64,000 nucleotides of DNA from Massalongia carnosa (taxonomy: Eukaryota), in assembly GCA_965645245.1 (NCBI GenBank), contig OZ287068.1, positions 3,224,001-3,288,000 on the forward strand, in the 5' to 3' direction. This document shows positions 817-32,882 of this stretch, one piece after another (position 1 is the first letter of the stretch; every line of letters begins with the position of its first letter). A model generated the notes under the pieces. That model was not told the origin of the DNA. It ran no database searches and saw only the letters and a program-made list of their open reading frames with translations. The translations under genes and the position numbers were made by a program.

Positions 817-2423
817 AATTGATCGTCATTGTTGAGAAGTTCTTCGTTAGTGCTTGGCGTCCTGATGCGTGGACGACCTCTCACCGGCTTGGCGAAGGCC
901 ATTTCTCGAATCTCCGGATTCATCATTCTTGTCGTTCTCCATTCTTCTCTTCCTCGTAGGGGCTTCTCTCTATCCTCTCTCCTGGGCGATAATGATCGCG
1001 ATCGTGCCACCAGCGGTCTTCCTGCGAGGTTCGTGCTTGGCTTTCTTTTTCTTATTGTTTCCATAGCCTCTGTCATTTCTTCATCGTTTGTCTCCTGTAC
1101 CTCTTCCTCCTCTACTATGGTGCTCCCTGTCCCGTCGGTCTGGCTTCGTTGGGTGTCTTTGTTGTTGTCGGTTGTGATGATCACTTCGACGTTCTGCAGC
1201 GGTGCGTTGGGAGATGGTGTGCTTTTCGATCCTAATCCTCTTTCCTTTCTCTTTTCCTCTTCTCTCCCGCTCGGAGGTGTTGCGTAAAGTCTTCTAGCGG
1301 AGTCCCTTGCGATTTCCGTTCGATGCTTTCTCTCCTTTCTTGTTCTGCATTCTGCCGCCCATGCTGGGTGGCCTTTTTCTCCACACGCTCCGCATCGTAG
1401 GAACCTCGGCGCCTTGTTGCCGGGGCACGATCGGCTTTCGTGTCTCCCCGCGCAGTATCCACATGTGGTGGGATTTCTGCAGAACTTTGCTATATGGCCG
1501 TATTGTTGACAATTGAAGCATTGTGTGAGCTTGCATCCGGCTTCGAATAGCTCGCACGTCTTGATTTCTCCTCTGTCTGCTAGACCTACGAGGATGAGCC
1601 GATTGGCCATCTCCGCAGTTTCTACCTCGATGTGCATAGACGCGTATCTCTTGTTCTGCTTAATGGCTCTAGTGCTCCATGCCACTCTATTAATTTTTAG
1701 GTCTTCGTGCAGATCCTTGTTTTCTCTTATCAGATATTCTATGGCCTTCATTTGTTTTGGTCCTCGTACATCGTTCATCCGCATGCCGTGTGCTATTACC
1801 GCGTATCCCTCTTTACGAATCGTCGCCGATGCCGCCACATTCTTTATCCATGCTGGTTGTGATTGGAGGCTCTGCTTAGCCTGCGCTGTTTTGGTGTGGA
1901 TTTTCAAATCCCCGCTGGGGAGCTTCCTGATACCCGCTATCTCGCTGTTGGGGATTTTTATAGCTTCTATGATTTCTTTTGTCGTCTTTCTTCCCAAGGC
2001 CTCTTGCTCTTTGGGATCTTCTATTCTGACTATGAGTTCTTTCATCTTTCTCTTTTCTCTAAGCATGTTTTCATCGATTTGGGTCTGCGTCTTTCCGATA
2101 TCCCCAGTCGTTCCCCTACGGCCCCCAGACGCGACGGCGGCGTAGCTGAGCGCTTTTCCATTGTTTTCTCCCTGCTTCTCAATCTTCTGTAATCTTTGTT
2201 GTATGTCGTGCAGTATGCTTTGAAGACTTTCTTGATTCGACGCGTCAGGCGCGTCGCGTTTTGCCTCGTTTTGTTCTATGAACTCCACCAATGCGAGTAT
2301 CCAGCGACTCACTACTGCGCCTGGTACGGTCTCCCCCATACCTTTTAGTACCTCCCTCGCTTTACATGTTAAGTGGTAGGCTTCACTCATTTCACGCGTC
2401 AAGGCGTATTCGTTCGTGATCAT
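813..2423 (-). CDS. LINE ORF1 gag-like protein with three CCHC zinc knuckles
   Basis: 536-aa ORF with CFNCQQYGHIAKFC, CGYCAGRHESRSC and CGACGEKGHPAWAAEC. Confidence 0.9.
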   Translation of the reverse strand: MITNEYALTREMSEAYHLTCKAREVLKGMGETVPGAVVSRWILALVEFIEQNEAKRDAPDASNQESLQSILHDIQQRLQKIEKQGENNGKALSYAAVASGGRRGTTGDIGKTQTQIDENMLREKRKMKELIVRIEDPKEQEALGRKTTKEIIEAIKIPNSEIAGIRKLPSGDLKIHTKTAQAKQSLQSQPAWIKNVAASATIRKEGYAVIAHGMRMNDVRGPKQMKAIEYLIRENKDLHEDLKINRVAWSTRAIKQNKRYASMHIEVETAEMANRLILVGLADRGEIKTCELFEAGCKLTQCFNCQQYGHIAKFCRNPTTCGYCAGRHESRSCPGNKAPRFLRCGACGEKGHPAWAAECRTRKERKHRTEIARDSARRLYATPPSGREEEKRKERGLGSKSTPSPNAPLQNVEVIITTDNNKDTQRSQTDGTGSTIVEEEEVQETNDEEMTEAMETIRKRKPSTNLAGRPLVARSRSLSPRREDREKPLRGREEWRTTRMMNPEIREMAFAKPVRGRPRIRTPSTNEELLNNDDQL

Positions 2424-2610
2424 TCTTTAGAATCACCAGCGTCGGCCTTTCAAGAATTCCAAAGATCAAGCGGACATGAACTTCCAACCTTTGTTGTCTC
2501 CGTTATATTGAGTGTAAAATTTTTCGTAAAACACGGATGAGTCTATCATCAATACGGTATTTGAATTGATGTTTGATACTTTAAACTGTGGGTCTGAAGT
2601 TTCATCGCCG

Positions 2611-3003
2611 GCTGAACTTATGGCTCGCAAAGATTTGGTTTGCGAATTTGTAGAGAGCTGACGCTATGTATTGGTTGTCCTATGAGTTGTTGCAGAAACT
2701 ATCGTGAAACAGTTCGGCGATCGATAGGTGAGGGCATGTAATCAAGTTGCAATAAGAATATGGAGCAATGTAAAACATCTATAAACATACTCTAAGGAGT
2801 TGACATGGAACTTGTTGAGACCGTCGAAATAGATATATATTGTATATATGATGTATTACGATTGTCGCAAAGAGGTAGGGTTTTAGATGCAAAAGCTCTT
2901 CGTAGCATCTGGACTTTGAGTTAGCCCACTGGGACACTGCAATTTTAACACCTGCTCCTCCCACGATTTTTTCATAACGTATTTTATAGTCTTGACTTCT
3001 TCA
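2611..3003 (-). repeat. Inverted, internally deleted copy of the SNF2 gene 3' end and 3' flank (16262-16743)
   Basis: Reverse complement matches 16262-16333 and 16426-16743 almost exactly; about 90 bp are missing. Confidence 0.92.
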
Positions 3004-3231
3004 ATTACGAAGGCGTGAACGGGGGATGTCTGAAAGACGGCAAAACAGTCAAAAACAATTTACTTTAAGCACTTGGGTAGTTGCTGGGGACAAGGGGGGG
3101 GAATTGGGAGTTTATAGGGCAAAGTAGTAAATTTACCATGATTTTCCCCATCTCCCCCGAAATAACGAAAAACCCGCTATAACGAAAATATTTTGGTAAA
3201 ACGCCACCATCGTTATGGCGGGGTTCGACTG
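3004..3231. mobile_element. Terminal fragment of a Tigger/pogo-like DNA transposon (one TIR)
   Basis: Ends CGTTATGGCGGGGTTCGACTG|TA, with subterminal ATAACGAAAA repeats; no partner TIR seen in the window. Confidence 0.6.
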
Positions 3232-3233
3232 TA

Positions 3234-5475
3234 GTAGATGAACTGTTAATTTAGTGTGAGGGTGAGGCTTAAGCTAGTCCTAATAAGCAGTAGAACTTTA
3301 CGAGGGGTCTGCCAGATGGGGTCTGTCTCGAATCTATCACTTCATCATCTTTTCATTGATTTATTTCATGGCTGCCTCGCACGTCCAGAATCCTATGCAG
3401 GCTCAAAACCAGTCTCGTCCTGGGCCTAATTCAAAGTCCACCAGTCTTCGCAGCTTGCATTCAGCCCGACTTCCCAAGAAAGCGTTTATGTAGCATGCCC
3501 GGTTGTTCCAATGCTAATGCTTCGATCATTAAACAATTTCGTCTGCATCGAGAGGTGGCCGATCATCCTACACTTCGCGATATTTCTGACGACGAATATG
3601 ATGCTCCTCGACATCGAGTATCCTACACCAGAGAGCAGAAACTAGCTGCTATTAGCTATGCTCAAACTACCTGGAAGTCTCAGAAGGATGGAAGTATGAA
3701 GCTTATCAGTAAATATGCTGCAGCCAACAATCTTGGAATTACTACCACGATGCTTAGAAAGTGGATTGAAAGTAGTTCGAGTATCGCCGCTCAACCTAAA
3801 GGTAAACGAAAAGACAGCAAAGCTATGGGTGTATGTAAAGAGCCTGAGCTTGAAAGGCGACTTTTGGAGTTATTCATGGAAGCCCGTAACACTGGACGTA
3901 AAATCAATAAACGTTAGTTTGTTCGTCAGGGTCGTCAGGTGTATGGTCAATTATATCCTCATCGAGTGACTAAGGCATCCGAAAGAATGACTGAGTATGC
4001 CGAGTTCAAATTCTTTACTGGTTGGTTTCGTGGATTCAGACGAAGGTGTGGTATAGCTGTCAGAAATCCTACCAAAAAAGCTCAGCAGGTGAATAATCAA
4101 ATGTTAATTTTTTTGATGATATTGAACTAATGGCATTCGGTTCATATCAGATTCCCGAGAACTTTCGCGATATTATCTAGTTGTGGTTACAATTGAATCG
4201 TCGCAATTCTCAACCGCTTTCGGGTCAAATTCCTTTGCATGGAGGAGGAAGATTTCGTCTTTGCGATATCGGCAATATGGATCAGATTCCTATTGCTTAC
4301 GAGTTCCTGCAGGGTCAATGCTACGATTTTAAAGGTGCCAAAACTGTATGGATTAAAACCCATCGGTCTGGATGGGACAAAAAACAAGCCACTTTGATGA
4401 TTTATGTTTCTGCGGACGGCATTAATCGATGCAAACCTCTTCTCATATTTAAAGGCCAAGATAGTACAAAATGTAGTCGAATCAAGAAGGAGATGACGCA
4501 TTACGACTCGGGAGTAGTAGTTCAATGGGATCTAAAGGCCTACTGCAATGGAAAAGTCATGTGTCGATGGCTAAAACAGCAGTATAAATACGCTACTCTG
4601 GGACTTTATAACGCTAATACACGGCGTTTTCTATCATTAGATGTGTTTGCGGAACAAAAGCCGATGAGGTAAATAACTGAGCATTTTGTTTTCAAGCTGC
4701 TCATGTTTGCTAACAAATTTTAGGTTAAACAAGCCTTTAAAGATTTAAACGTCATAGCATCATTTATACCTTCCGGCTGCACCGGGTTTATTCAAGTTCT
4801 AGACGTCGCCATTAATAAACCTTTGAAGAATCGAATATCGGAGCTAGCCGACATTCATTACGATGAGCACTTCGAGAAATGGAATAAAGGCTCATACACG
4901 GTGGGTGATCGACGAATTATGCTAACAAAATGGGTGGGACAAGCGTGGAGGGAAATGCACTTGGAGCATTCTTCTTTGATTTGTCAAACCTTTCGAAAGT
5001 TGGAATTGTCTCTTGCTGTAGACGGGTCGGAGGATGATAAGTTGTCAGTTAAAGACATACCAGGCATAACGGTAGGCGATTGGAAGCTTTCTACCGGTCA
5101 GGAGGATACACAAGAGGTAGAGGAGCCTGATACAACTGATAATAGTGAGGAGGTGCAGAAGGATGACGAAACTGAAGGCGTCATTGAAGTTAGGGAGTAT
5201 GTTTTGAGTGATGAATCTGGGGCCGTTTTGAATAGCGATACTGAGATGGATGTTGATGACGATTGATTTTCAGGGGATTTTTACTGATGCTTAGAGAATT
5301 TTTACTACTGTTTTGCACAAAATTGCCCTGTTGATGATTTGTCATCCCAAAATCTCGAAATTATGGTCTTATAGTGCAGGACCCCCCTTATGTTCAGAAA
5401 TAAGCAATTTGAACGGGGTCTTATATCCGGGAGGGTCTTACCCAAAAGCAGGGTCTTATTTGCCAGATAATACAG
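3234..5475 (+). mobile_element. pogo-family DNA transposon, left end missing
   Basis: Right end ..GGGTCTTA repeats..TTTGCCAGATAATACAG|TA; encloses a DDE_1 transposase remnant. Confidence 0.75.
3495..5266 (+). pseudogene. pogo/CENP-B-like DDE_1 transposase with introns and in-frame stops
   Basis: HTH region, GWFRGFRRR, IGNMDQIP, LSLDVF and QVLDVAINKPLK; stop at 3915-3917; likely introns at about 4089-4150 and 4669-4722. Confidence 0.85.
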
Positions 5476-6597
5476 TAGAAGAATTGAAGACTCTCCTTCC
5501 CTCCTTTTTTGCTTTCTTTCGTGGCTGTGTCAAGCAAAACCTAATTAACTAACTAGTCCCACTTAATTGTTGAGAAAGAATCGCCTGCGACGTCATCGAA
5601 GCATGGTTGTAGGAAGTTTACTAGGAGCGCTTCTGTCAGATATTTATTTTATCTTGCCATTCTCGAGATCAGCCAACGCAATTAGTTGAAGGTAATTTAT
5701 CAATCGATGCATTCCTAAGATCTCGTGATGTCTTTCACGTGACTTGCGATAACTAAGTGCCGAGTGCCAGAGCCGTTCCGCCAAACAATAAAAGGCTAGA
5801 AACAACTCAACTTGTCAGTTATCACGTGTATAGCCACAAGGTTGAGCTAACACAGGAATAATCCTATTCCATGTTATCTTGAAGTTCGGAATATCTCTAT
5901 ACTTTATGCTCAACATAATCGCTCATGCAAACGATTGTAGAAGGTGTTTGCAGATACACGAGAGATTTCAGAGGATAGTAATGGGAGGAAATCGTCAACC
6001 CTACTGCCAGATACGAGTACTGTCGAACAATACGAGGAATTACTAATGGAATCTCTGTATGGTCTTCGATAAACCGGATGCTTGAGAAAGATCAAGAGAA
6101 TTCGTGTCTGTCAATGAAAGTCGTAATCGTAAGCTGTTTACACGCTCTGTGTAGAGAAAACGAAGAGCCTGCAAGCTTTTTTGTATCAATACAATTCGAG
6201 CTGTGATAAGACACTAGGCGGCAACAGGCTTTGATTTACATTACCGGACTTGGTGAGCTAGCGTGATTGCAGAGCCGTTTTGGTAGAGCGCCAATGGAAG
6301 GAAAGGTGATTTCACAGCTCTCCCTCTTCGCATCACTTGGCAGCTATACCCAGCCCTATTTATTATGGGTTATAAACCTACCTATGATTGGCATGTCATT
6401 ACAGAGGAGTCTTCACTATAGCTTGTTATGTTCAACAACTTGGGCATCTAAAACGGTTGAATATGCGATCATGACCTAAAGGTTCTCGAGCTCTGTACTC
6501 TATTTACGATGATTGACTTTTAGACTTGTATCTCGTTAAAAACCTCACATGCGAATCTTTAAAAACGATTTTGTCTTTACCAAGCCTGCTCTTGCCT

Positions 6598-9500
6598 TTA
6601 AATGGAGACCGGAATATTCGGCGCCATGGCCGAGGATTGCCGCCAGTCCGCCAGCTGCTTTCGTAACGTCCGTGAAAGGGAAGTCAGATCTTCCAACGCT
6701 TTCTGATACGATTCGCCGTCCTTTGGCTCACGGTTCAGGGTTTCGTGGAGAGCGTCGACCTGATCTTGACACGCGGCTTTTTGATACGGATCAAGATGAG
6801 GCAGCCTAGGCACCTGATCGGGCCTGATTAATGCTCGGTGGGCTCGCTGTGTCCCTGGATCATTGATCCGAGGAATGGCATTGCGAGAGCCTGGTAAAAT
6901 ATTATCGAACGAGATGTCTGGGAATAGCATAGAATCATCAGGTACACTGGGATCGGGTGCAGTCTTGCTCGCATCCTCGTAGTCACTTAACGCCCGCGTG
7001 GAACTTGGTGTGCTTGGGGGGTTGGGTGAGCGACTTGAATTACTCCGTGGACTGGACATGCTTCGTATACCTGGAAGACGATATGCGCTACCTTTGGAGT
7101 TTCGCACACTATTGTTTTCGTGATGCTTCATCGCTTGCCACAGACTAGGGAGTTGGTCTGGGCCCTTGTTCGATGAGGGAGCCGATTCGGTTTCCATATA
7201 ACTTTTGTTAGGTATTTCGATCTCTTTCATCCATCTAAGAAGAGTCTCGACGGAGGGCTTAGCTGGGAAGTGCGCTCGATGTAGATGCTTTGCGGCGTTA
7301 CCTTTATTATGATAGCGCTTGCCAGAAGAACAGGCTTGGCATCTGGCAAGAAACTTCTTGTCTACCGAAGCATCAACGCACACCCAGACTTTTCGGCTAA
7401 TTTTGTGAAAGCGTGTAATGTGTTTTCTTAGGGTATATTCGTTGAGCAGTCCATCGGGGAAGTTGGTGCAAAAATGGCAGAAGGCTCTTGGAGGCGCCCG
7501 TCTTTTTCTCGGCCTAACATTGATATCAAGGGCAGGGAAGGAGGCGTCTGCATCTAGAGTTTCCCTTGAGACCGTCGAGTGCTGCTGATTCATACCCAAC
7601 AAAGATTCTGGCGGTAACCCATAGGGCCCATAGGGGAACGAGGTATTAAATGGTTGTCCAAGATAACGGGCACATGAGTCTATGGTATTATTCGGGCCAG
7701 TTTCAGCTATTGGCATAGCAGCCGGAGTACCTTGGAGCTCCGGAGGGCTTTGGTCAGGTTGGGCTCGTAGCTGCGCTTTTATCTCCGCAGCATCCGCCAA
7801 GCTTGACAGGTCCTCTCTTCCCGTTCTCAATAGAAGTAAAAAGTACTGTTCAACCTCATCCGCGGTCTTAGTCTTTAGAAAATCTGAGATGCGCCTGAAA
7901 TCTCGTCCATACAGTTCTACAAGTTTTGGAAATTCTTTCTTCTCAATTTCAGACCAATACAGTGTTCTTTTACTCCTCCAAGCAGAACCAGATGCAGATA
8001 AACATGTTGCGTTGCCTTCGTTGGCTTCATTATCATTGTGTAAGTAATCATGATTGTCTTCAGATATGCCTCCACTCATGGAGTATCGGGAAGTAGGTGA
8101 GGACTTTGAATCGTAATTGGCAAAAATAGAATAACCGGCCAACGTTTTCTCAAGCTCTCGATCACAAATTGTCTCAAATCCGTCCATGTCGAGCGTTCCA
8201 TCCATATGTGAATATATTGAAAGTCCGCGAACATCGTCCTTGAAATCGGCCAAGGAATGATATCCCTGCTCTTCGATCTTGTCTTGCATCTCTTTCAACT
8301 TTGTTGACGACCTTTCCTGTCTCAAAGAAGTTTCGGCTGAGAAATCTGCTTCCTCCTTTCCTTCTGAACGCATAAAATTCTGCCAACTGCCTTCATTATT
8401 TGCTGCTGCGACCTCAGATTGAAGTCTGGCTAAAACTTGCCGGAAACTGCTTTGGAGAACCTTACGGCCTTGTTCATTCCAACATCGCGACGTACGAGCA
8501 GCGCCGAGCGATTTCCCAGAGGTAAAAACATTGTTCCTCCATGACGAAATGTCACCGGAATAGAGACTGGCTGGGATTTCAAAGTCTTCCATGGACATGT
8601 GATATCTTTTGGTGTGCTTTTCCAGATCCTTACGCGATCGAAATCCCCTTCCAGAGAAGTCACACTCAAGACATGGGAACGAGACAATATGAGTCACTTC
8701 ATGAACATTCCGATCGTGTATTGATCCAGAATGATAATTACAAGTATGAAAGCGGCAGAGAAAACCAAATCGATCAACAAACATAGCAAAGTCGTCCTTC
8801 CCAATATGAGCTGGAAGCTTCGATGAGTCCGTGGAAAGGAGCCGCTCGGTGACCTCTCGCAATCTGCAATCTATGAGACTTAAAAAAGTTTCATCCTTTT
8901 GGAGCTGCCATTGTTCCTGAGCATTTAAGCTTTCGAAGGTTGGTGCCATTTCGTCTAATTGGGATCTAAAATGAAGACAATGATTAACGAGGCTGAGGAG
9001 CTCTGGAAATGAAGCAAGTTCTTGAAATCCAGTTGCAATTCGCTGTGAGCTCTTCTCCGGAACAGGCTCTACGGAAGTAGTTGACCGGTTTTTCTTTACG
9101 TGGGAGAAAGCCTTAAGCGCGTCGACCAATATCATAGCCTGACTATCCAAGACGGGAATATTCTCCAGATAAGCCTTTACATGTGCGGCCCAGAAACGGT
9201 GGCTATAATCCTGAAGCCCATACCCTCCTTGTACAATACGTTTCTCGTGATCCAACTCAGTTGTGCCATCGGAAAACCGCGGCAAGATCGTCAAAGCAGA
9301 GGTCAAATTGGCGATGCAGGAGAATCCGATGCTAAAATGAGCTTGTGCGACATCAACGAATGGACCGCTCTGTGGGTGAACAAGGTATTCTTTTGCGGAG
9401 AAGTGTACCAAATCTAAGACACCGCTACTTGACTTCTCGATGATTGGTGCACATAACTCGAGAATATCCCTATTCATATCCTGACTCCTCGTTTTCTTAC

Positions 9501-11289
9501 TCAGAATTGTCTGACCAGGCCTCAACGCAAGCCCATCAGCAACATCATGTATTGTGACGGGTCGATATGCTGCACACACCCAAAAAAGCACTTTGAAAGC
9601 TCGATCTTTTAGAACTGGACTCAAAATGTAAATGCGTTTCAATATAAGCCCATAGGCTTCTTCCAACCCGTCAGGCAGCTGCTCTATTGCATTCTCAAAG
9701 TCCATTTCTGAACTTTGATGGAGAAGCATTGTGACTACAAGGCGGACCCAAAGGAACATTCCTTTCGCCTTTTCTCGCAGCCGCTGCTCTACGCGTTGAA
9801 AAAGGGACAATTCCATGTTTGGAAAACGAAGCTTCAGGTCTTCAACATTTCTTTCAATGTAAAGGTAGAGAGACTCGGTTGTCTTCCCATCAAGGGCAAT
9901 ATGAGTCTTGCACGGCATTGCTTTGTTTATGTGTATTTCATTCCGGCTGGAGACAAAGATTTTACACTTTTCACCAGCGTGTTTTTGGAGTTCTAGCAGA
10001 CTGGTAAGTAATTCCTTTTGAACCGAATGATCGCATTCATCAACGCCATCTAACACAATGCGCGTAGAATATAGAGAGGAAAAAATTTCTTTGAGCATTC
10101 GTTTCATAGCTGAGCTAGAATGGCCCGAGCCTTTCTGGAGATAGGCCTGGTGAATGAGCGGCGCCAAATCCAGGTTCTGTCGCACCACCTGAACTGTAAG
10201 CGTACGTAGAACTGAGCTACAACTGTCTGGTAGGGACGACTTTAGTCCGCAAAAGTAATACAAAGATGTCTGATCTTGACGAAGCTCAAGGTTTTCAACC
10301 AACAAGGAGCAAAGAAAACTTTTACCAGCCCCTGGAATGCCCGTCATCCAAATCAAACCGTTTCCGATTTCATCCTCAGTCCATGATAATATATGATCGT
10401 TTTCAAGAATCCAATTACATGTTCCAGGCTGACGTTTATCAGCCAGCTGGTGAAGATGTTCTTCTTGGCTATCTTCTGCTGCCGACAGCCATCGGAAGAC
10501 TTCCTGAACCATTCGCTGACGTCGCCGCTGCTCAAAATCTTCATCGTCAAGTTGCCGAGCATCTCTCATTCTTTTCATCTCGGAGAAATGTATAGCGGTA
10601 GCTTCCTTATCAAGCAGATCACAATGAGAGGCTAATTTTGCTAATATAGACTTGAAACGCCGTTCGAAGAGGCCCCAGTCAAAGGCGAACCACAGGTGCC
10701 AGGTTCTGCGACGGAAAAACTTGTACACGCGTTGGATAAACTCGAGTATATCGCTATAGATTAGAGCTAGAACTCGTTGAAAATCCTTACTCTCTCCAAA
10801 TACTGCCTTCAACTTGTCCACCGTCGGAATGGCTTCAGCAATGTCCTTGAACGCCTGAAGTATCTTGTCCATGACGTTTGAATACTGCCTTGCTAGCTAT
10901 CATGGAGCATCAGTCGTGACGTAGAGAAGACAAGGGTTAGAACATACAACAAGCATTAACTTGATTGGCCCCTGATAAGCTTTAGTTAGCTGCTAGCTAG
11001 AATCATCTTATCTCAAGCCGGTCGAGCCTACCCATACCCACGCCATTGGCGAAAACCCTTGACAAAAGGAGTCTATGACACCTGAATAGCTTTCCAGGAA
11101 CCGTAGAATTGGCTCTATTCTCCCCATGTAGCGGAGCGACAGCTGGGCACCTTGCTCGTGCTCAATTTTGCGGATGCCTTTCCATAAATCTTCCAGATTC
11201 GTGTCAACGAAGGTCCGGGCATCTTCGGGGTTGAGAGTTGCTTTCAATTGATCGATGGCCTTCACCACAATTGCTTGTGCAGTTGCCAT
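6598..11289 (-). CDS. NLR-like NACHT protein (about 1526 aa): N-terminal helical domain, NACHT, WHD, 2x C2H2, bromodomain-like segment, SANT/Myb, KLAP1-like zinc module
   Basis: Exons 11289-11032, 10971-10948 and 10896-6598 splice in frame (WVW|GPIKLMLV|LARQY). Walker A GIPGAGKS, Walker B IVLDGVDE, GMFLWV and LVHFSAKEYL are present. Confidence 0.9.
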
Positions 11290-11861
11290 AGGACTGTGCT
11301 GGGAGTAGATCGTTGAGGGGCTGAACAACGGATGACTTTGTTCTTCAGCATTGACTGATCGCTGATCATGTCAATCTTGAAACGTGCATTCTAATTGCAC
11401 CTGCACATATTGGCATAATAAAGAGTCGGTTTGCCTTGAGCCTTGAAAATGATGATACTTGAGTGCGCCTGAATGAGCCGCGTGGCGGTGCACAACCTGA
11501 AGCCTACTCGTATTCCAGTTATGTAAGTCAACCTCGGTTATCATCTGATCAGCTGCTGACAGGTGGGGGTGCTGACAGACGTGCGGGAATTAATCGAAGC
11601 GTGGTCCCACACAAACAACTAATCAAGATAACAACTACGATTTTTCAGCAATTCAAGAGTATTTCTCAGCATTATGAGCTCAGACTAAAGATTCGAAAGA
11701 CAGTGGTGATGAGAATGATCGAAAAGACTTAGTGCTCTATACTCGGTACTTTGAGCTCTGTGTACTCTGTAGCTCCGTAAGGGACTGTATTTTCCCCATA
11801 TATGTAGGTATAACTTTTACTCGTGCGGTAAGCCTGGACTACCTAAGATACTCTTGAGTGG

Positions 11862-13170
11862 CACGCGGGTGAAAAAAAAAACTCCCCCACCAAAACTTAC
11901 CCCTTTTCTTCCCCTTTTTCTTCCCCATCTTCTTCCTCATTCAAAATTTCAAATGCCATCCCACTACGATACACCTCAAAAGGCCAAGGTGCAGGGAGCT
12001 TATGAATTTCTTCTTGCAAATGGCATTTCCATCGATCCTCGAGAGATTTTTCAGCATTTTGGCATTCGAAGCGAGAGACATGGCTATAAGATCATTCGAA
12101 ACGGAGCATCTTCTAGAAGACATCATTCAACGCTGGTTGAGACACGCGATCGCAAATCAAAAGTCACGGAAGCACAAATACAGGAGGCAGATCACATTCT
12201 ACAAGATGAGGGGCTACAGCTGGAAGGAAAACGATACACATGGGAGCAATTGGCTATGGAGATTGGGGCCGACGTTGTCGGTCGTACAATGCACAATGTT
12301 ATGTCGGCTGCTCTAAGCTATGAGAAATGTCTGGCCTGCGTCAAGGGATGGCTGGCCGACCCACCTATGGCAAGACGGGTCGAATTTGCTCACATGATGC
12401 TGACCAGATATCCCAAACCGGAGCAATGGGATCGCGTACGATTTAGTGATGAGATTCATTTTGGATATGGGCCGGAAGGACAGTTACGAATCATTCGTCA
12501 GCCCGGAACACGATATCGTTGGGATTGCATACAGCATCGTGACCCGCCTCCTGAGAAAGATCGAAAACGAAAACATTGCTGGGCTGCAATTGGCTACAAT
12601 TTCAAGTCGGATATTATCTTTTATGACGTGCCGGGCAACAGCAATGGTAAAATGACTCATCAGGTGTATATTGAATCCGTTCTTGACCCCGTCGTCAAGC
12701 CCTGGCTGGAGCGTGGGGATGACTTCGTACTTGAAGAAGATGGAGACTCTGGTCATGGCACGGGCAAGATAAGAAATGCCGTCAAGAAATGGAAGGAAGA
12801 TCATCATTTAGAGCATTATTTCAATTGTGCCTCATCACCTGATTTGTCCCCTATAGAAAATTGCTGGCAGCCAGCGAAGCAGCATGTTCGAAAGTATCCT
12901 CATTGGGACGATGTCAGCTTGAAGCAGCTGATTAGGGATGGATGGGAACGGGTGACGCAGGAATTCATCAAAATGAAAGAGTTCGATCAATGCCCAAATG
13001 ATTGGAAGAGGTAATTAGGGCTGAGGGGGCGATGACTGGCTATTGAATAGAATGTATGTAGAATTTCAATGTTGAATGGGGAAGAAGATGGGGAAGAAAA
13101 AAGGGAAAGAAAAGGGTAAGTTTTGGTGGGGGAATTTCGGCTCAACTTGCCCTTTGTTTTCACCCGCGTG
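11862..13170 (+). mobile_element. Tc1/IS630-like DNA transposon with about 90-110 bp imperfect TIRs starting CACGCGGGTG
   Basis: Left end CACGCGGGTGAAAA..CCCCCACCAAAACTTACCC matches the reverse complement of the right end; flanks are AGTGG and AGCAG, not TA. Confidence 0.88.
11953..13046 (+). pseudogene. DDE_3 (DD38E) Tc1-like transposase with a C-terminal frameshift and stop
   Basis: RFSDE, LEEDGDSGHG and SPDLSPIENCW; the expected tail (NERVRSMPK*LEEVIRAEGAMTGY) lies in another frame after about 12970. Confidence 0.85.
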
Positions 13171-13455
13171 AGCAGAGCGCACAAAGAGTGGGGTTGTTCT
13201 ATTTCAGCTGATGACCTGCATTTGTCCTGTGGCGTTGACCAGGTACAGAGAAACACCTAATCATGCAGCGTCTGCCTCGTCGGCGCTAGCACTCTGTACA
13301 CTGGAGGTCCAAACTCCAGTGTCCCTACAAATAACATCGTTCTCGTTTATCGAATCAACCTATTAAGGAGCTTGCGGTTAGATTGATTATGAAGTCAATC
13401 GAACTTGGAAACGATCTCCCAAATTCGCATTTGACGTAGGCTTCTACTCTTCAGC

Positions 13456-16434
13456 ATGGAGTATGCGTCCGCTCCCGATGAACTTGCTTTGATAGAGAGG
13501 CCAGGGAACCGAGCGATCACAGATGATGATCAGATGTGCTGTTTCGGAATGGTGAGCAAACTCAGTTGAACGTACTCTTTAATATGAGAATGAAGTCAGG
13601 GAGATTTCATGCCGCCCAATAGTGACCCGAGAATTTAGACAATATCATTGTGCCTTTGGCGGACCTAGCTTCGAGTGCAAGCTTTCAATTCATGAAGAAT
13701 TGTGCTGATTGTGTAGTCTAGGTGGTTGATCTTGTCGTGAAGCTTTCGTGCAATTACGAGATTCGGGAGACTCCTATTCATTTAGATGTTATGGAAGATT
13801 CAAGCACCCTCTTTGATCCGAAAGCAAAATCCAAATTCGGATCTCTTAACCTAAGGGCAACCAAAATTCTTGCAGTTCTACGCAAAGAACTCGTGATACA
13901 GATCTTTGCACATAGCTTGCCTAACCTGTCAAAGGATCTGCTAAAGGGAAGTATAACATCGAATGGCAAGACGAAACAGGCAAGGTCAAACCCATCCATT
14001 GGTTTGTACGTAATACTTTATGGACCTTCAGGTCTCGCTCAGCATGTTGGTGACTTTACAGCGAGGTGCAGTCTATACCTGCAACCTCCCTTGTGTTGCA
14101 ACCGAAATGTTCCTTATCAAAATCCACACTGTTTATCCCCCCTTACTTCTGAGAAAGTGTACACATATGAGCTGCTGAATGGAATCTTGGAAGAGGATTT
14201 AGTATCGACCATCGAAACATACTTGAATCCCATCGATCTCTTCGCTGACAGCACGGAGCAAGAAGCGATCCCGGATACGGAATCTCCAGAAGCTTTACGC
14301 ACAAAGCTGTATAAACACCAAAAGCAAGCACTAACATTCATGATGCAACGGGAAAGAGGTTGGGCAACAAAAAGTCATCAAAGAGATATCTGGAAGGAGG
14401 AGAATGACGCTCTCGGCCGGGTGGTATATTTCAATACTGTTAGTGGACAAAGGCAGTTTAGACCACCAAAACAATTTCGAGGCGGTCTACTCACCGACGC
14501 ACCTGGTTTGGGGAAGTCTCTTAGTATAATTGCCCTTATTGCATTAACTGTAGAAAATCGGGGGAACATTCAGCATGATGAGAGTTCATCGAATACAACT
14601 CTCTTAATTGTTCCAAAAACGTGTAAGCTATTTTTTATTTCAGGAACCCACAATAGCTGACTGTTTGCAGTAATCCAGACATGGAAAGATGAACTAGAAA
14701 AGTGAAGTATCCAGAATGAGTGATCTCATGTGCATATAAGTTGACGTTCCTCCCTAGGCATCTCAGCTCGTCCAATGTCATCAAGTTTTGCGTATACTAT
14801 GGAAAAGATAAGACGAAATATCTAGCAGATCTTTCACAATATACTCTAGTCATTACGACCTACTCTGTCGTCCGTTTGGACTGGAAAACAAATAGCTCAG
14901 AGCCCAGCCATCGCCTATTTTTACATAGCGTGCGATGGAAAAGGATCGTCCTGGACGAGGGTCTGCAGTCTTACTTAAAAAAAAAGTCTCCTGCTAATAT
15001 TTTTAGCGCACATAATTCGAGAGCCATCCAAATCTTTTGCACAATCCGTTTGCGCCCTTGAGGCTGAATGTCGATGGGCTGTGACTGGCACACCTATTCA
15101 AAACCGTCTGAGAGATCTATTTAGCTTGTTCAAATTTCTTCAATGCTCTCCATTTGATGATTTAAAGACGTTCAACACCCAAATCGCTCAAAAGTGGAAA
15201 GCAAGATCTGATCCAAATTGCGTGGCGAAACTGAAAACTCTTGTCAATTGCTTGTCATTACGACGGCCCAAAACCATTATTGAGCTACCACCCCGATGTG
15301 ACGTCACGAGTCAACTTGAATTCACCGAAGAGGAATGGCAATACTATGAAAAGGTCCAGGCTGTCACGAAGCGCACGATCGATGCAGCGACCGGGGAAAA
15401 CGGGGGGGCTACCTTTATCAACGCGCTCCAATGGGTCAATGAGCTTCGTCTAATATGCAACCATGGAGTTAAGAGCGGGAAGATAACGCAAGATTTGCCA
15501 AATATATCGGCCAATGTGTCAAGGTGGACCGAACAGGAAGCTCAAGCACGCTTCAATCATCTTGATCAAGTCGGGCTTGCCAAATGTTCTAATCCCGAAT
15601 GTTGCAACGATCTCTCCTCTGCGTTGTCCAGCGAGACTGATACAGAGCATGCTGACGAACCTCGATTGGAAGAGTCACTAGAACTCCTTTGTTCTTTATG
15701 TTTTCATGCTCGGTCAGGAAGGGCTGGGAAGTTTTTCAAAGTTTGCAACCACCTGCCGCGGCGTCCTCTCAATATCGTTGCGCTTGGTACCCAGCAAAAA
15801 CTCGCAGACGAGAAATCAACAACGGCTTCCTTGTTAGATTTCACTTCAGGGGGGATAATTCCCAGCAAAATCAAAAGGCTTGTGCAGGACTTATCCGAAA
15901 CGCCGGAAGATGTTAAAAGGTTTGGGTTGCGGCAACCACAGCTCCCTGGAATCGCTAACAAACCATCGCCTTAGTGTCGTCTTCTCCTCGTGGACAAAAA
16001 CCTTTGATATTATCCAACCCGTGCTAATGAACAAAGGTATCAGATGCGTGCGCCTTGACGGGACGCTATCCGCTTCAAGCCGTATCAGTGTGATAAGAGT
16101 ATTCCGTGCGAACCCCGGTATCAAAGTTCTCCTCGCCACGATCACCTGCGGGGGAATTGGACTCGACCTGACCGCTGCGTCAAGGGCGTATATAATGGAG
16201 CCTCAATGGAATCCCATGAGCGAGTCACAAGCGCTGGACCGCATCCACCGGCTAGGGCAGCTGAAAGAAGTCAAGACTATAAAATACGTTATGAAAAAAT
16301 CGTGGGAGGAGCAGGTGTTAAAATTGCAGTGTCGCAAACAGGAGTTGGCGGACCTGACTTTGAGTGGAGGGGTTATTAGCAGGGCCGAACTTACTCAGGG
16401 TCGGCTGCAATATTTGAAAGAACTTGTGGGCTAA
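13456..16434 (+). CDS. SNF2-family ATPase/helicase, Rad5/Rad16/HLTF-like, multi-exon
   Basis: Exon 1 13456-13551 (..CCFGM); LYKHQKQAL, GGLLTDAPGLGKS, VLDE|AH across an intron, TGTPIQN, a Cys-rich insert, VVFSSW, GLDLTAA and EPQWNP..QALDRIHRLGQ. Confidence 0.92.
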
Positions 16435-17573: not shown

Positions 17574-19739
17574 CCCTCTCGCTGTCATTCTAGCACCCCC
17601 CCCCCAAGCTAATCTATATTGGACTAGCTTCCGCACCGATGAGTCATCAGAACATTAGTTTTCTCTAGAGTGTTTGCGCGTTTGTTTACTTTTCAAAGAA
17701 TACTATTCGGTCATTCAATCAAAATAAATCACATAAATTACTATTCTTCTAGCTTCGGAATTGATATTATAAGTATGACGCTCAATGAAGAAGAAATCCC
17801 GAGTGTATCAGACAAATCTCCCATTTCAGCGAAGCAACATAAAATAAATCGCAAAAGAAGTGTTCGGGATATTTTAATCGACCTTCCCCCTATTTCCTCA
17901 AAATATACCCCCATTCGGGTTGAAAACAGGCCTTTTGTTCCGCTCGTTGAAAACGATTCTCGAAATCCTTTGGGATTATTTCGGTTATTTATAACAAGGC
18001 AGCATTGTCGTATCATCGCAAATCATACCAATATCAAGGCAAATAACTACATGGAAAGGGAGAAGGAGAACAATCATCGGGTTTGGACTGACACTACTGA
18101 CTCGGAAATTGAGGTTTTTTTGGGCATATTAATTCTTATGGGACTCGATCATCTACCTGCTACAGAGGATTATTGGAATCAACGTCCTGACAAACCAGTT
18201 ATCATGCCTATTCTGTCCGCGATGTCGCTTGGTCGATTTCAACAAATCAAACGATTTTTGAAAATCAATAATGGACAGACTGAGCCTATCGGACTTGGTC
18301 AAGGACCTGATTGGTGGAAGAAACTGGAACCGTTGGCTACTGATTTCCGAAAGACTTCATTGAAACATTGCAGACCAGGAAGTATGATATCTATAGATGA
18401 ACAGCTGGTGTTATTCAAGGGCCGTTCTCGACATACCTTGCAGATTACTACAAAAAGTGCCCATAAAGGATTTAAAATCTACAGTCTCTGTCAGGATAAT
18501 TATCTGTTGTCATTTATGTTTGCCTCGAAGAGTAGCAGAATAAGTGAATTGAAAACAGTCAGACAATTGGGATTTTTGCCAAAAGATAAACTAACTCCTA
18601 GTGCTTTGCTAGTGATTCAGTTATGTAAAGAACTTCCATCCTCACTGAATTATCATCTTTTCTGTGATAATTTCTTTACTAGTACGAAATTATTCAAGGC
18701 ACTTCGATCAATCGGAATAGCTGCCAGTGGAACTGCTAAAAAGGGCTCGGGCTTTCCAGAAGAATTGTTGGCCATACGGGACGTCACTTCAAAAGGAAAA
18801 GACTGGGGTCTTCAGGCCCATATGGTGGTCGACGATAAGGTGCTTTGTATGGGCTGGGTGGATAATAATGGTGTGCAGTATATGACCACCGGTCATTCTC
18901 CTCAGGACTTGTACGAAATGCACTATATAAATCCGCACAAGAGATATGGAATTCCCGAGACCTCTCTTCAACCTATTGTATCGTATTTCCCATCAACTCT
19001 GGCTCACTCCATTCCCTTGCTCAATCAAGAGGTTCAACGGCCCTTAGGATTACCGATACCAGCCCCAATCAAAGAATATAATCTTCATATGCGGGGATCG
19101 GATGGAAACGCTCAGCAACGAGCGATTTACTCATACAATCGTCGAACGGATCGTTACTGGTGGCCTTTGTTCATTTTTATTTTAGATGCAGCCGGATTGA
19201 ATGCCTATAAACTTTACTCGCTGAACTCTTTCGATTCCGAGGAGATAAAATTTACTCGTTCTGAATTTCTTCGTCGGATTGCTCTTGAACTGATATCAAA
19301 TCAAGCGGGCATCAGGCCCGGCTCATCAAAGATAAGCATCAATACCACGATTGATGCTTTAGTACCATCTCCCATTCATCATTACGTTCGTCTTGAAGGC
19401 AGAAAAAGATGTGTGCAATGTAACGCCGAGAAAAAACGACCTTCAAAGCGGAAGGGAGAGCCACTGGCTGAAATAAGTGTCGATGGGCGTAAAAGAAGGC
19501 GAAGGGGTGCTCAGACTATATGGGCTTGTGGAGGATGTAATCCAATCAGGCCCTGCTGTAAGAAAGCCAGCTGTTGGGAAGCTATTCATATGATAGGGGA
19601 CGAGTAAATAGGTATCTGATACTCCGTACAACTTCTTGTGAATAGGAATAACATTGATTGGTCAAAAGTTTAAGGTTTAGCGCTTTCTAACCAACAATGG
19701 TTTAGCTTGGGGGGGGGTGCTAGAATGACAGCGAGAGGG
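17574..19739 (+). mobile_element. piggyBac-like DNA transposon, copy A1
   Basis: TIR CCCTCTCGCTGTCATTCTAGCA(C)9-10AAGCTAA at both ends; both ends abut AT. Confidence 0.95.
17775..19607 (+). CDS. piggyBac-family DDD transposase with C-terminal cysteine-rich domain, intact
   Basis: SIDEQLVLFKGR, FCDNFFTS, EYNLHMRGSD, YWWPLF and CVQC..CGGC..CC..CWEAIH; first ATG at 17775. Confidence 0.93.
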   Translation: MTLNEEEIPSVSDKSPISAKQHKINRKRSVRDILIDLPPISSKYTPIRVENRPFVPLVENDSRNPLGLFRLFITRQHCRIIANHTNIKANNYMEREKENNHRVWTDTTDSEIEVFLGILILMGLDHLPATEDYWNQRPDKPVIMPILSAMSLGRFQQIKRFLKINNGQTEPIGLGQGPDWWKKLEPLATDFRKTSLKHCRPGSMISIDEQLVLFKGRSRHTLQITTKSAHKGFKIYSLCQDNYLLSFMFASKSSRISELKTVRQLGFLPKDKLTPSALLVIQLCKELPSSLNYHLFCDNFFTSTKLFKALRSIGIAASGTAKKGSGFPEELLAIRDVTSKGKDWGLQAHMVVDDKVLCMGWVDNNGVQYMTTGHSPQDLYEMHYINPHKRYGIPETSLQPIVSYFPSTLAHSIPLLNQEVQRPLGLPIPAPIKEYNLHMRGSDGNAQQRAIYSYNRRTDRYWWPLFIFILDAAGLNAYKLYSLNSFDSEEIKFTRSEFLRRIALELISNQAGIRPGSSKISINTTIDALVPSPIHHYVRLEGRKRCVQCNAEKKRPSKRKGEPLAEISVDGRKRRRRGAQTIWACGGCNPIRPCCKKASCWEAIHMIGDE

Positions 19740-19779
19740 ATGGTCCAGCACGTTAGACCTAACGGACTGGTCTAACTAT

Positions 19780-21945
19780 CCCTCTCGCTGTCATTCTAGC
19801 ACCCCCCCCCAAGCTAAACCATTGTTGGTTAGAAAGCGCTAAACCTTAAACTTTTGACCAATCAATGTTATTCCTATTCACAAGAAGTTGTACGGAGTAT
19901 CAGATACCTATTTACTCGTCCCCTATCATATGAATAGCTTCCCAACAGCTGGCTTTCTTACAGCAGGGCCTGATTGGATTACATCCTCCACAAGCCCATA
20001 TAGTCTGAGCACCCCTTCGCCTTCTTTTACGCCCATCGACACTTATTTCAGCCAGTGGCTCTCCCTTCCGCTTTGAAGGTCGTTTTTTCTCGGCGTTACA
20101 TTGCACACATCTTTTTCTGCCTTCAAGACGAACGTAATGATGAATGGGAGATGGTACTAAAGCATCAATCGTGGTATTGATGCTTATCTTTGATGAGCCG
20201 GGCCTGATGCCCGCTTGATTTGATATCAGTTCAAGAGCAATCCGACGAAGAAATTCAGAACGAGTAAATTTTATCTCCTCGGAATCGAAAGAGTTCAGCG
20301 AGTAAAGTTTATAGGCATTCAATCCGGCTGCATCTAAAATAAAAATGAACAAAGGCCACCAGTAACGATCCGTTCGACGATTGTATGAGTAAATCGCTCG
20401 TTGCTGAGCGTTTCCATCCGATCCCCGCATATGAAGATTATATTCTTTGATTGGGGCTGGTATCGGTAATCCTAAGGGCCGTTGAACCTCTTGATTGAGC
20501 AAGGGAATGGAGTGAGCCAGAGTTGATGGGAAATACGATACAATAGGTTGAAGAGAGGTCTCGGGAATTCCATATCTCTTGTGCGGATTTATATAGTGCA
20601 TTTCGTACAAGTCCTGAGGAGAATGACCGGTGGTCATGTACTGCACACCATTATTATCCACCCAGCCCATACAAAGCACCTTATCGTCGACCACCATATG
20701 GGCCTGAAGACCCCAGTCTTTTCCTTTTGAAGTGACGTCCCGTATGGCCAACAATTCTTCTGGAAAGCCCGAGCCCTTTTTAGCAGTTCCACTGGCAGCT
20801 ATTCCGATTGATCGAAGTGCCTTGAATAATTTCGTACTAGTAAAGAAATTATCACAGAAAAGATGATAATTCAGTGAGGATGGAAGTTCTTTACATAACT
20901 GAATCACTAGCAAAGCACTAGGAGTTAGTTTATCTTTTGGCAAAAATCCCAATTGTCTGACTGTTTTCAATTCACTTATTCTGCTACTCTTCGAGGCAAA
21001 CATAAATGACAACAGATAATTATCCTGACAGAGACTGTAGATTTTAAATCCTTTATGGGCACTTTTTGTAGTAATCTGCAAGGTATGTCGAGAACGGCCC
21101 TTGAATAACACCAGCTGTTCATCTATAGATATCATACTTCCTGGTCTGCAATGTTTCAATGAAGTCTTTCGGAAATCAGTAGCCAACGGTTCCAGTTTCT
21201 TCCACCAATCAGGTCCTTGACCAAGTCCGATAGGCTCAGTCTGTCCATTATTGATTTTCAAAAATCGTTTGATTTGTTGAAATCGACCAAGCGACATCGC
21301 GGACAGAATAGGCATGATAACTGGTTTGTCAGGACGTTGATTCCAATAATCCTCTGTAGCAGGTAGATGATCGAGTCCCATAAGAATTAATATGCCCAAA
21401 AAAACCTCAATTTCCGAGTCAGTAGTGTCAGTCCAAACCCGATGATTGTTCTCCTTCTCCTTTTCCATGTAGTTATTTGCCTTGATATTGGTATGATTTG
21501 CGATGATACGACAATGCTGCCTTGTTATAAATAACCGAAATAATCCCAAAGGATTTCGAGAATCGTTTTCAACGAGCGGAACAAAAGGCCTGTTTTCAAC
21601 CCGAATGGGGGTATATTTTGAGGAAATAGGGGGAAGGTCGATTAAAATATCCCGAACACTTCTTTTGCGATTTATTTTATGTTGCTTCGCTGAAATGGGA
21701 GATTTGTCTGATACACTCGGGATTTCTTCTTCATTGAGCGTCATACTTATAATATCAATTCCGAAGCTAGAAGAATAGTAATTTATGTGATTTATTTTGA
21801 TTGAATGACCGAATAGTATTCTTTGAAAAGTAAACAAACGCGCAAACACTCTAGAGAAAACTAATGTTCTGATGACTCATCGGTGCGGAAGCTAGTCCAA
21901 TATAGATTAGCTTGGGAGGGGGGTGCTAGAATGACAGCGAGAGGG
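19780..21945 (-). mobile_element. piggyBac-like DNA transposon, copy A2 (inverted, near-identical to A1)
   Basis: Same TIRs; I found only three substitutions relative to A1. Confidence 0.95.
19912..21744 (-). CDS. piggyBac-family transposase, intact
   Basis: Identical to the A1 protein except one R/K change (YMERE vs YMEKE). Confidence 0.93.
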   Translation of the reverse strand: MTLNEEEIPSVSDKSPISAKQHKINRKRSVRDILIDLPPISSKYTPIRVENRPFVPLVENDSRNPLGLFRLFITRQHCRIIANHTNIKANNYMEKEKENNHRVWTDTTDSEIEVFLGILILMGLDHLPATEDYWNQRPDKPVIMPILSAMSLGRFQQIKRFLKINNGQTEPIGLGQGPDWWKKLEPLATDFRKTSLKHCRPGSMISIDEQLVLFKGRSRHTLQITTKSAHKGFKIYSLCQDNYLLSFMFASKSSRISELKTVRQLGFLPKDKLTPSALLVIQLCKELPSSLNYHLFCDNFFTSTKLFKALRSIGIAASGTAKKGSGFPEELLAIRDVTSKGKDWGLQAHMVVDDKVLCMGWVDNNGVQYMTTGHSPQDLYEMHYINPHKRYGIPETSLQPIVSYFPSTLAHSIPLLNQEVQRPLGLPIPAPIKEYNLHMRGSDGNAQQRAIYSYNRRTDRYWWPLFIFILDAAGLNAYKLYSLNSFDSEEIKFTRSEFLRRIALELISNQAGIRPGSSKISINTTIDALVPSPIHHYVRLEGRKRCVQCNAEKKRPSKRKGEPLAEISVDGRKRRRRGAQTIWACGGCNPIRPCCKKASCWEAIHMIGDE

Positions 21946-32844: not shown

Positions 32845-32882
32845 TTTTGATATTTGATTGTGCTTGTTGGATCCGTCGTATC

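Follow-up and report, generated by a model that had tools for sequence, protein, structure and literature searches.

The locus studied here raises the question whether two neighbouring genes that diverge from a common intergenic region, one encoding a NACHT protein and the other a SNF2 ATPase, work together and, if so, on what their activity is directed. The genes occupy positions 6,598 to 16,434 of a 64,000-nucleotide stretch of DNA from the lichen-forming ascomycete Massalongia carnosa (assembly GCA_965645245.1, contig OZ287068.1, positions 3,224,001 to 3,288,000 of the forward strand), which is called the window below and to whose first letter all positions refer. Both genes are intact, the NACHT gene on the minus and the SNF2 gene on the plus strand, with start codons 2,166 bp apart; coordinates and exons bear out the preliminary description of this DNA, which had noted two intact divergent genes with about 2.17 kb between their starts. 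That the two genes form a functional module is well supported. We further consider it moderately probable that they are one co-inherited module of Pezizomycotina, in which a switch of the NOD-like receptor (NLR) type, belonging to the signal transduction ATPases with numerous domains (STAND), is coupled by N-terminal binding to a DNA translocase of the Rad5/HLTF type and has a DNA-directed output. The earlier interpretation, a nuclear surveillance or defence system of two genes, is overall partly supported.

Conservation of the gene arrangement was surveyed in metagenome contigs, which were scanned with two NACHT peptide patterns only; the scan gave 152 stretches, 122 of them confirmed, and 78 distinct loci (L numbers below). 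A locus was regarded as evaluable if the NACHT N-terminus was present together with at least 4 kb of upstream sequence. Among the 31 loci that qualified, 30 carried a SNF2 homologue upstream on the opposite strand, i.e. head-to-head. The gap between the NACHT start and the first matched SNF2 residue (about residue 30, later in weaker matches) was 0.67-3.1 kb, mostly 1.0-1.4 kb. A SNF2 piece was also found at the contig edge in 4 of the 47 non-evaluable loci. At least seven deep lineages have retained the head-to-head order, while the surrounding synteny was lost: the pair region matched in all 75 between-clade comparisons and the flanks in none of 274, and within the lichen clade the corresponding counts were 15 of 15 and 2 of 60. 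The window itself shares nothing but the two genes with the surveyed loci. In Dirinaria sp. the NACHT and SNF2 homologues bear the consecutive locus tags Q9191_004972 and Q9191_004973; the two proteins of Pseudocyphellaria aurata, and likewise those of Xylographa soralifera, come from contigs of equal size, which is compatible with a single contig and no proof of it. The homologues obtained with the NACHT exon of L051 were Leotiomycete proteins, and their genomes were not those of the SNF2 proteins listed.

The histories of the two genes were compared in trees built from 32 rows in which both were well covered; 8 near-duplicates were dropped and 24 rows left. The NACHT and SNF2 trees had 16 of 21 splits in common, as against a mean of 0.2 and a maximum of 3 in 2,000 label shuffles, and their patristic distances were correlated with r 0.94, a value that was reached in none of 2,000 Mantel permutations. 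Judged by the best named relatives of their SNF2 proteins, the loci L034 (Rutstroemia, Hyaloscypha, 64-67%), L051 and L067 (Botrytis, Botryotinia, Cadophora) are Leotiomycete-like and L047 (Exophiala, 47%) is Chaetothyriales-like. More than one family type occurs in a single genome, a window-type NACHT with an L033-type SNF2 in Sticta canariensis and an L034-type SNF2 with an L051-type NACHT in Rhexocercosporidium. Since both trees also show the same deep clades, duplication and divergence seem to have affected the pair as a whole. Thus, the two checks that the preliminary description had proposed for homologues, conserved divergent adjacency and congruent trees, both came out in favour of the pairing; it had also made its proposal depend on linkage of the homologues and on a position of the SNF2 protein outside the syntenic core RAD5/RAD16 orthogroup, and the homologues are linked and the SNF2 protein lies outside the RAD5-labelled clade.

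The neighbourhood of the genes might have no functional meaning, being residual synteny or the joint cargo of a mobile element. The pair does sit in a stretch of the window rich in transposable elements, and its flanks differ among lineages. Against this reading, the between-clade contrast of pair and flanks is 75/75 to 0/274, no terminal repeats bounding the pair were found in the window, L001, L034 or L066, and the trees follow the named taxa and one another. We regard a meaningless adjacency as highly improbable.

The NACHT gene consists of three exons with the start codon at 11289 and encodes a product of about 1,526 amino acids; the SNF2 gene has six exons, a start codon at 13456 and a spliced product of 867 amino acids. 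The exons and the parts of the shared intergenic region are:

11032..11289, minus strand: NACHT exon 1, encoding the N-terminal helices, among them the one predicted to bind SNF2 (~11113-11187)
10948..10971, minus strand: NACHT exon 2, encoding GPIKLMLV; free of gaps against orthologue P0015, splice sites read
6598..10896, minus strand: NACHT exon 3 including the stop codon, an open frame of 1432 codons with, in order, the end of DUF7708, NACHT, winged helix, helical arm, C2H2 fingers, bromo-like stretch, SANT/Myb, DUF7896 and a conserved tail
11290..11860, no strand: NACHT side of the shared intergenic region, between the NACHT start codon and an inserted element
11861..13160, plus strand: the inserted Tc1-like (DDE_3) element of ~1.3 kb, within the shared promoter region
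13161..13455, no strand: SNF2 side of the shared intergenic region, between the inserted element and the SNF2 start codon
13456..13551, plus strand: SNF2 exon 1, identical to orthologue P0122 in length and in its CCFGM end
13722..14622, plus strand: SNF2 exon 2, with a HIRAN-like domain (~13722-14102), the motif YLQxP..C.RNVPY.NPH (14076-14141) and motif I TDAPGLGKS (14493-14519)
14671..14701, plus strand: SNF2 exon 3, from the alignment with P0122
14758..14960, plus strand: SNF2 exon 4, whose end falls within motif II DEAH
15007..15919, plus strand: SNF2 exon 5, with motif III TGTPIQN, an insert at the RING position (C-x4-C...C-x2-C...C-x-H, ~15582-15761) and the Pfam SNF2-rel_dom match (E 3e-27)
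15975..16434, plus strand: SNF2 exon 6, with Helicase_C (Pfam E 1e-15), motif VI QALDRIHRLGQ and the stop codon

The 3' end of NACHT exon 1 was placed by alignment with P0015. The upstream NACHT exons are real, since the Pfam DUF7708 match in exon 3 begins only at profile position 50. Full-length NACHT orthologues were 41-95% identical to the exon 3 product, and the SNF2 protein was identical to P0122 at 568 of 854 positions, with no indel at any exon junction. Among the matches listed, the closest named homologues of both proteins belong to the Lobariaceae (Peltigerales).

Direct contact between the partners was modelled with P0122 residues 1-240 and P0015 residues 1-250. These orthologues from Pseudocyphellaria aurata, entered as single sequences, were used because the window's own N-termini are spliced. 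The complex scored 0.69 and the best of three controls 0.01; of 78 solved complexes 51 attained the former mark, of 108 mismatched pairs 2. The runs agreed in at least 45% of the contacts, and the predicted local distance difference test (pLDDT) of the partner was at least 72. The predicted interface joins SNF2 residues 150-153 and 165-170 to NACHT residues 36-59 and falls on invariant or near-invariant columns of both family alignments. The model supports direct binding between the N-terminal parts of the two proteins. A domain or short motif common to both families was not found when alignments A2 and A3 were compared by hhalign (best probability 0.3%).

A different explanation for the conserved pairing is co-regulation only: the genes would share a bidirectional promoter and be needed jointly, e.g. 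for DNA-damage tolerance or a developmental chromatin programme, with neither binding nor NLR-type signalling. What is conserved is indeed that the genes diverge and lie about 0.9-1.3 kb apart, the NACHT protein of the lichen clade is conserved like a housekeeping regulator, and the evidence for binding is a model. However, family-specific N-terminal motifs are invariant in both proteins and are modelled in contact (0.69 against 0.01 for the best control), the pairing outlasts an exchange of the entire NACHT C-terminal module (described below), and the genes of L059 are still neighbours despite a changed orientation. Furthermore, a k-mer scan of the intergenic sequences revealed no conserved promoter motif; the sole sequence it recovered was the last part of SNF2 exon 1 together with the splice donor. 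Co-regulation as the whole explanation appears unlikely to us.

The anatomy of the SNF2 protein points to a motor related to Rad5 and HLTF, the HIRAN-SNF2-RING DNA translocases of post-replication repair. Residues ~33-159, the first ~127 of exon 2, fold at pLDDT above 90 in an AlphaFold2 (AF2) model, and this fold matched the HIRAN domain of HLTF with Z 7.7 and a root-mean-square deviation of 3.0 over 101 aligned residues, while the Pfam HIRAN model gave no match. The top eight rows of the VIA search were HLTF, Rad5 or lp_0118 (Z 6.4-7.7, next row 4.5), and Foldseek likewise returned Rad5 (6l8o, E 2.9e-4). The SNF2 family has 566 representatives with this domain at E ≤0.001. The domain is followed by the invariant, family-specific motif YLQxP..CDRNVPY.NPH, the segment that is modelled in contact with the NACHT helix. 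All ATPase motifs are present (GLGKS, DEAH, TGTPIQN and QALDRxHRxGQ), as are the N- and C-lobes (Pfam SNF2-rel_dom and Helicase_C), and the closest solved sequence is Rad5 of K. lactis (E 6e-56). In the alignment with relatives, the insert at the RING position keeps C-x4-C and C-x2-C, and the C-x-H and last C-x2-C of the RING-bearing relatives are absent; no RING match was obtained with Pfam in P0122. With one surviving zinc site, the protein is probably a motor without E3 ligase activity.

In the SNF2 tree, the paired family and other motif-bearing fungal SNF2 proteins formed a separate Pezizomycotina clade of 33 rows (support 99), outside the RAD5-labelled clade (95) and the TTF2 clade (100). 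This was a quick tree of 49 rows, and RAD16-labelled sequences were absent among the SNF2 matches listed. The preliminary description had drawn attention to motif I TDAPGLGKS and a degenerate RING-like insert, both of which the alignment with relatives confirmed, and had taken them to suggest an accessory paralogue rather than core RAD5/RAD16. The protein is more than an accessory paralogue, since its HIRAN-like domain makes it Rad5/HLTF-like in architecture. As to motif I, TDAPGLGKS is limited to Peltigerales, nearly all other Lecanoromycete rows have IDAPGLGKS (one NPGLGKS), and distant SNF2 partners show the canonical ADQ/DMGLGKS/T, so that the variant is a Lecanoromycete peculiarity and no family trait. 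In three public lichen annotations the SNF2 orthologues P0122, P0124 and P0125 are named 'alpha-1,6-mannosyltransferase', a label that looks wrong because the proteins carry SNF2 and Helicase_C domains.

The NACHT protein combines an NLR-type core with domains that bind DNA or chromatin. Its recognisable parts downstream of the N-terminal helices are:

9889..10425, minus strand: NACHT/NPHP3_N NTPase domain (Pfam NPHP3_N E 3.6e-34, also NACHT), with Walker A GIPGAGKS at ~10318-10341 and Walker B LDGVDE
8599..8757, minus strand: two C2H2 zinc fingers after the nucleotide-binding oligomerization (NOD) module, Cys/His columns invariant in alignments A1 and A3
8227..8301, minus strand: bromodomain-like stretch (Pfam Bromodomain E 0.029), weak in the window copy
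7834..7959, minus strand: Myb/SANT domain (Pfam PF00249, 28.3 bits against a cut-off of 24.4)
7234..7479, minus strand: DUF7896 region (Pfam E 3.4e-13) with two more C2H2-like fingers and a basic KRR stretch before it

Alignments A1 and A3 of NACHT proteins take in Leotiomycete proteins. The catalytic columns G181, G183, K184, S185, D275, G276, D278 and E279 were invariant in A1, as were the DUF7896 finger columns C1132, C1135, H1151, H1156, C1178, C1181, H1196 and H1201 in the alignment; the bromodomain of orthologue P0006 scored 24.8 bits against a Pfam cut-off of 21.7. The DNA- or chromatin-binding C-terminal domains that the preliminary description had recognised are accordingly supported by the C2H2 fingers, Myb/SANT, DUF7896 and the bromodomain of P0006. 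With its NACHT NTPase with Walker A and B motifs and its N-terminal effector-type domain, the protein shows two features of fungal NLRs.

Every paired NACHT protein carries the helix motif IE.EQ..R..LR.MRRIEP, a Goodbye-like N-terminus with DUF7708, NACHT with intact Walker A and B motifs, a winged helix, a helical arm and C2H2 fingers, and two such fingers are kept across all clades of SNF2-paired NACHT proteins, L066 included. The C-terminal module differs among clades, with bromo-like, SANT and DUF7896 domains in the lichen clade, WD40 in L066 and a WW domain in L067; in L034 this module contained no recognisable domain. The WD40 repeats of L066 (12935-14160) follow the conserved C2H2 fingers, have a period of 126 nt and are 90-92% identical at the DNA level. 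In the NACHT protein of the window Pfam detected no WD40, ANK or TPR repeats. The clusters of the Atlas closest to the N-terminus were DUF7708, Goodbye and NACHT_N (best score 0.92). With the model of the N-terminus (pLDDT 74), Foldseek gave only generic helical-bundle and designed-protein matches, none at E ≤0.001, which is no proof of a new fold.

Highly similar WD40 repeats are a pattern of fungal non-self receptors, and one can think of a cell-death NLR in which HIRAN-SNF2 detects foreign or broken DNA ends, NACHT monitors it via the N-terminal contact and a Goodbye-like N-terminus executes death. In line with this idea, the N-terminus clusters with the DUF7708, Goodbye and NACHT_N domains of fungal STAND proteins, one paired clade bears the highly similar repeats just described, and relatives are annotated 'HET-E-1 related'. 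On the other hand, the C2H2 fingers invariant in all clades, together with the SANT and bromo-like domains of the lichen clade, point to a DNA-bound protein; the modelled N-terminus is a helical bundle without a clear match to a solved pore-former, and it is with its effector and not its sensor end that the NLR takes part in the predicted contact. We consider this arrangement distinctly unlikely.

The favoured reading, an NLR-type STAND switch coupled to a translocase, can be put as a sequence of steps. The partners would join via their N-terminal parts, the NACHT helix of residues ~36-59 contacting the motif behind the HIRAN-like domain, and fingers and reader domains would hold the NACHT protein on DNA or chromatin. 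A signal may be sensed via the variable C-terminal module of the NACHT protein, whose nucleotide-dependent switching or oligomerisation would then recruit or release the translocase. The latter would act on DNA ends or structures via its HIRAN-like domain and ATPase, giving a nuclear, DNA-directed output and no membrane pore. The role would most likely be the surveillance of aberrant or selfish DNA, which is the weakest step of the proposal. Surveillance is favoured by the NLR architecture, the exchangeable sensor module including repetitive WD40 arrays and the presence of several paralogous pairs; a defence role of the pair is something we infer, and the anti-transposon, allorecognition or drive functions proposed earlier are conjectural. 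The specific form of nuclear innate immunity, in which a chromatin-bound NLR senses transposons, plasmids, viral DNA or non-self nuclei and deploys the HIRAN-SNF2 translocase on that DNA, is tentative and in our view somewhat unlikely.

Several observations weigh against the coupled-switch reading or parts of it. Within the adjacency survey, L020 has a full NACHT-Myb-DUF7896 gene with no SNF2 in 9.6 kb upstream, L025 has a Myb-bearing relative with neither NACHT N-terminus nor SNF2, and in L059 the SNF2 gene lies downstream on the same strand as NACHT; moreover, the survey ran in the direction from NACHT to SNF2 only. In Lobaria immixta, Sticta, Protoblastenia and Fulgogasparrea a NACHT protein was found and no window-type SNF2 among the 120 matches listed, which may reflect a limit of the search or annotation. 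The YLQxP motif occurs in 44 of these 120 SNF2 matches, including Fusarium and Aspergillus proteins that may lack a NACHT neighbour. Congruence of the trees is partly expected from shared species history. As to binding, the complex was modelled from orthologues and single sequences, 7 of 44 blind neighbour pairs also pass in the calibration of the same tool, and residue 49 of the window NACHT protein (~11143-11145), within the predicted SNF2-binding helix, is Q, as opposed to R in at least 90% of relatives. DUF7708 is found at the N-terminus of NLRs generally. Finally, the lichen-clade NACHT protein is conserved end to end and without repeats (alignment A1), which gives it the appearance of a conserved regulator rather than a fast-evolving receptor, and this conservation over the whole length argues against surveillance.

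Two surveyed loci showed peculiarities at the SNF2 side. In L020, an 8-kb island of 17-28% GC (1000-9000) lies directly upstream of the NACHT gene, at the expected SNF2 place. In L009, the SNF2 match (7-69) covers residues 411-431 only and is 470 bp distant from the NACHT start on its upstream side; the partner may be truncated, or the fragment may be an artefact of the contig.

How does the pair compare with known systems? With Rad5/HLTF it shares the order of HIRAN-like fold, SNF2 ATPase and insert at the RING position, the conserved ATPase motifs, and K. lactis Rad5 and the Rad5/HLTF HIRAN domains as closest solved sequence and closest folds, respectively. Unlike these, the SNF2 protein of the window has no Pfam HIRAN match, retains one of two RING zinc sites, measures ~860 amino acids and belongs to its own clade with a dedicated NACHT neighbour. 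Fungal NACHT STAND NLRs include HET-E, HET-D and NWD2; the window protein resembles them in the N-terminal helical domain of the Goodbye/NACHT_N/DUF7708 kind, the NACHT NTPase and the winged helix, and some paired relatives also have repetitive WD40, but it carries C2H2, bromo-like, SANT and DUF7896 domains in place of WD40, ANK or TPR repeats and is conserved over its full length across Lecanoromycetes. In fungal NLR-effector gene clusters of the NWD2/HET-S type, which use amyloid signalling, the NLR gene likewise adjoins the gene of a presumed downstream partner. Here, however, the partners have no common motif, the partner is a DNA translocase and not a pore-former, and in the predicted contact a helix meets a linear motif. 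The RPS4/RRS1 type of head-to-head NLR pair in plants, with its integrated DNA-binding domain, offers another parallel in the divergent genes, the shared promoter and the DNA-binding domains on one partner, whereas the present pair contains a single NLR and a SNF2 ATPase.

To our knowledge, the function of most fungal NLRs is unknown, and the known cases signal to membrane-directed death effectors. A deeply conserved pair of an NLR and a Rad5/HLTF-like motor would suggest that an entire NLR clade has its output in the nucleus and on DNA, and a large uncharacterised SNF2 family of Pezizomycotina would gain an assigned partner. If nuclear immunity were true, the pair would provide a DNA-targeting effector arm of a kind not described before for any eukaryotic NLR, and prokaryotic STAND systems with SNF2 effectors would have an equivalent in eukaryotes. 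The interface supplied by the model, a short helix against a short invariant motif, is testable, and relatives of Botrytis, Hyaloscypha and Exophiala also possess the pair, so that genetic work is feasible in fungi other than those of lichens. Among the papers listed in searches on fungal NLR/NACHT proteins with SNF2, helicase or HIRAN, and on DUF7708, no description of the pair was found; one of them, PMC13449251, had come up solely by the author name 'Hirano'.

Prokaryotic NTP-dependent conflict systems with SWI2/SNF2 effectors are treated by Kaur et al. 2020 (PMC7159879), and they resemble the present pair in combining a regulated NTPase with an output that includes a SNF2 helicase on nucleic acid. 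In PADLOC, the SNF2 core matched the ZorD, DpdE and DrmD profiles of Zorya, Dpd and DISARM, in each case as a generic helicase core only; none of its models was matched by the NACHT protein, and no single system was matched by both partners. The window pair differs from such prokaryotic systems in being eukaryotic and having chromatin-reader domains. In a Xanthoria preprint, NLR counts are limited to repeat-bearing NLRs.

The element inserted into the shared promoter region is separated from the start of the SNF2 gene by ~0.3 kb and from that of the NACHT gene by ~0.57 kb. It is of the Tc1/mariner type, with a DDE transposase, terminal inverted repeats, multiple copies and polymorphic presence: its inverted ends (11879-11948 and 13068-13137) comprise 70 nt and are 90% complementary, and its open reading frame (ORF, 11953-13014) is intact and encodes 353 amino acids (Pfam DDE_3). 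No TA duplication was seen at the element ends. Sequencing depth over the element was 30-75x that of the flanks (runs X1 and X3). In run X4, from a relative ~98% identical, 11841 is continuous with 13171 on one contig, which lacks the intervening 1,329 bp: an empty site. Empty site and high depth together show that the shared promoter region recently received a member of a multi-copy family and that this insertion is polymorphic, and the spacing of about 0.86 kb, which had been calculated earlier by removing the element, is directly observed in the X4 contig.

The window and X4 also differ in the C-terminal region of the NACHT gene (6641-7545), where the 33 differences listed comprise 24 nonsynonymous and 9 synonymous ones; 175 further differences exist over the whole compared stretch. 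The ratio of 24:9 does no more than hint at relaxed or diversifying selection.

A second NLR gene is present in the window (45954-48622, minus strand), combining DUF7708, NB-ARC and DUF7779 with TPR repeats. In contrast to the paired clade, it lacks the helix motif, and no SNF2 gene adjoins it.

The earlier statement that nearly every older transposable element around the genes is decayed was not fully right, as two intact piggyBac-like ORFs and one of copia type were found in the window. The piggyBac-like (DDE_Tnp_1_7) ORFs, each of 654 amino acids, lie in opposite orientation at 17643-19604 (plus strand) and 19915-21876 (minus strand), with a perfect inverted repeat of 226 nt (19519-19744 and 19775-20000), and look like very recent copies. 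The copia-type polyprotein ORF (28624-32880, minus strand) is intact with 1,419 amino acids and has LINE, RVT_1 and piggyBac-like fragments nearby. Housekeeping genes (glutamate synthase, Apc15 and ORC5) begin at ~36.6 kb of the window.

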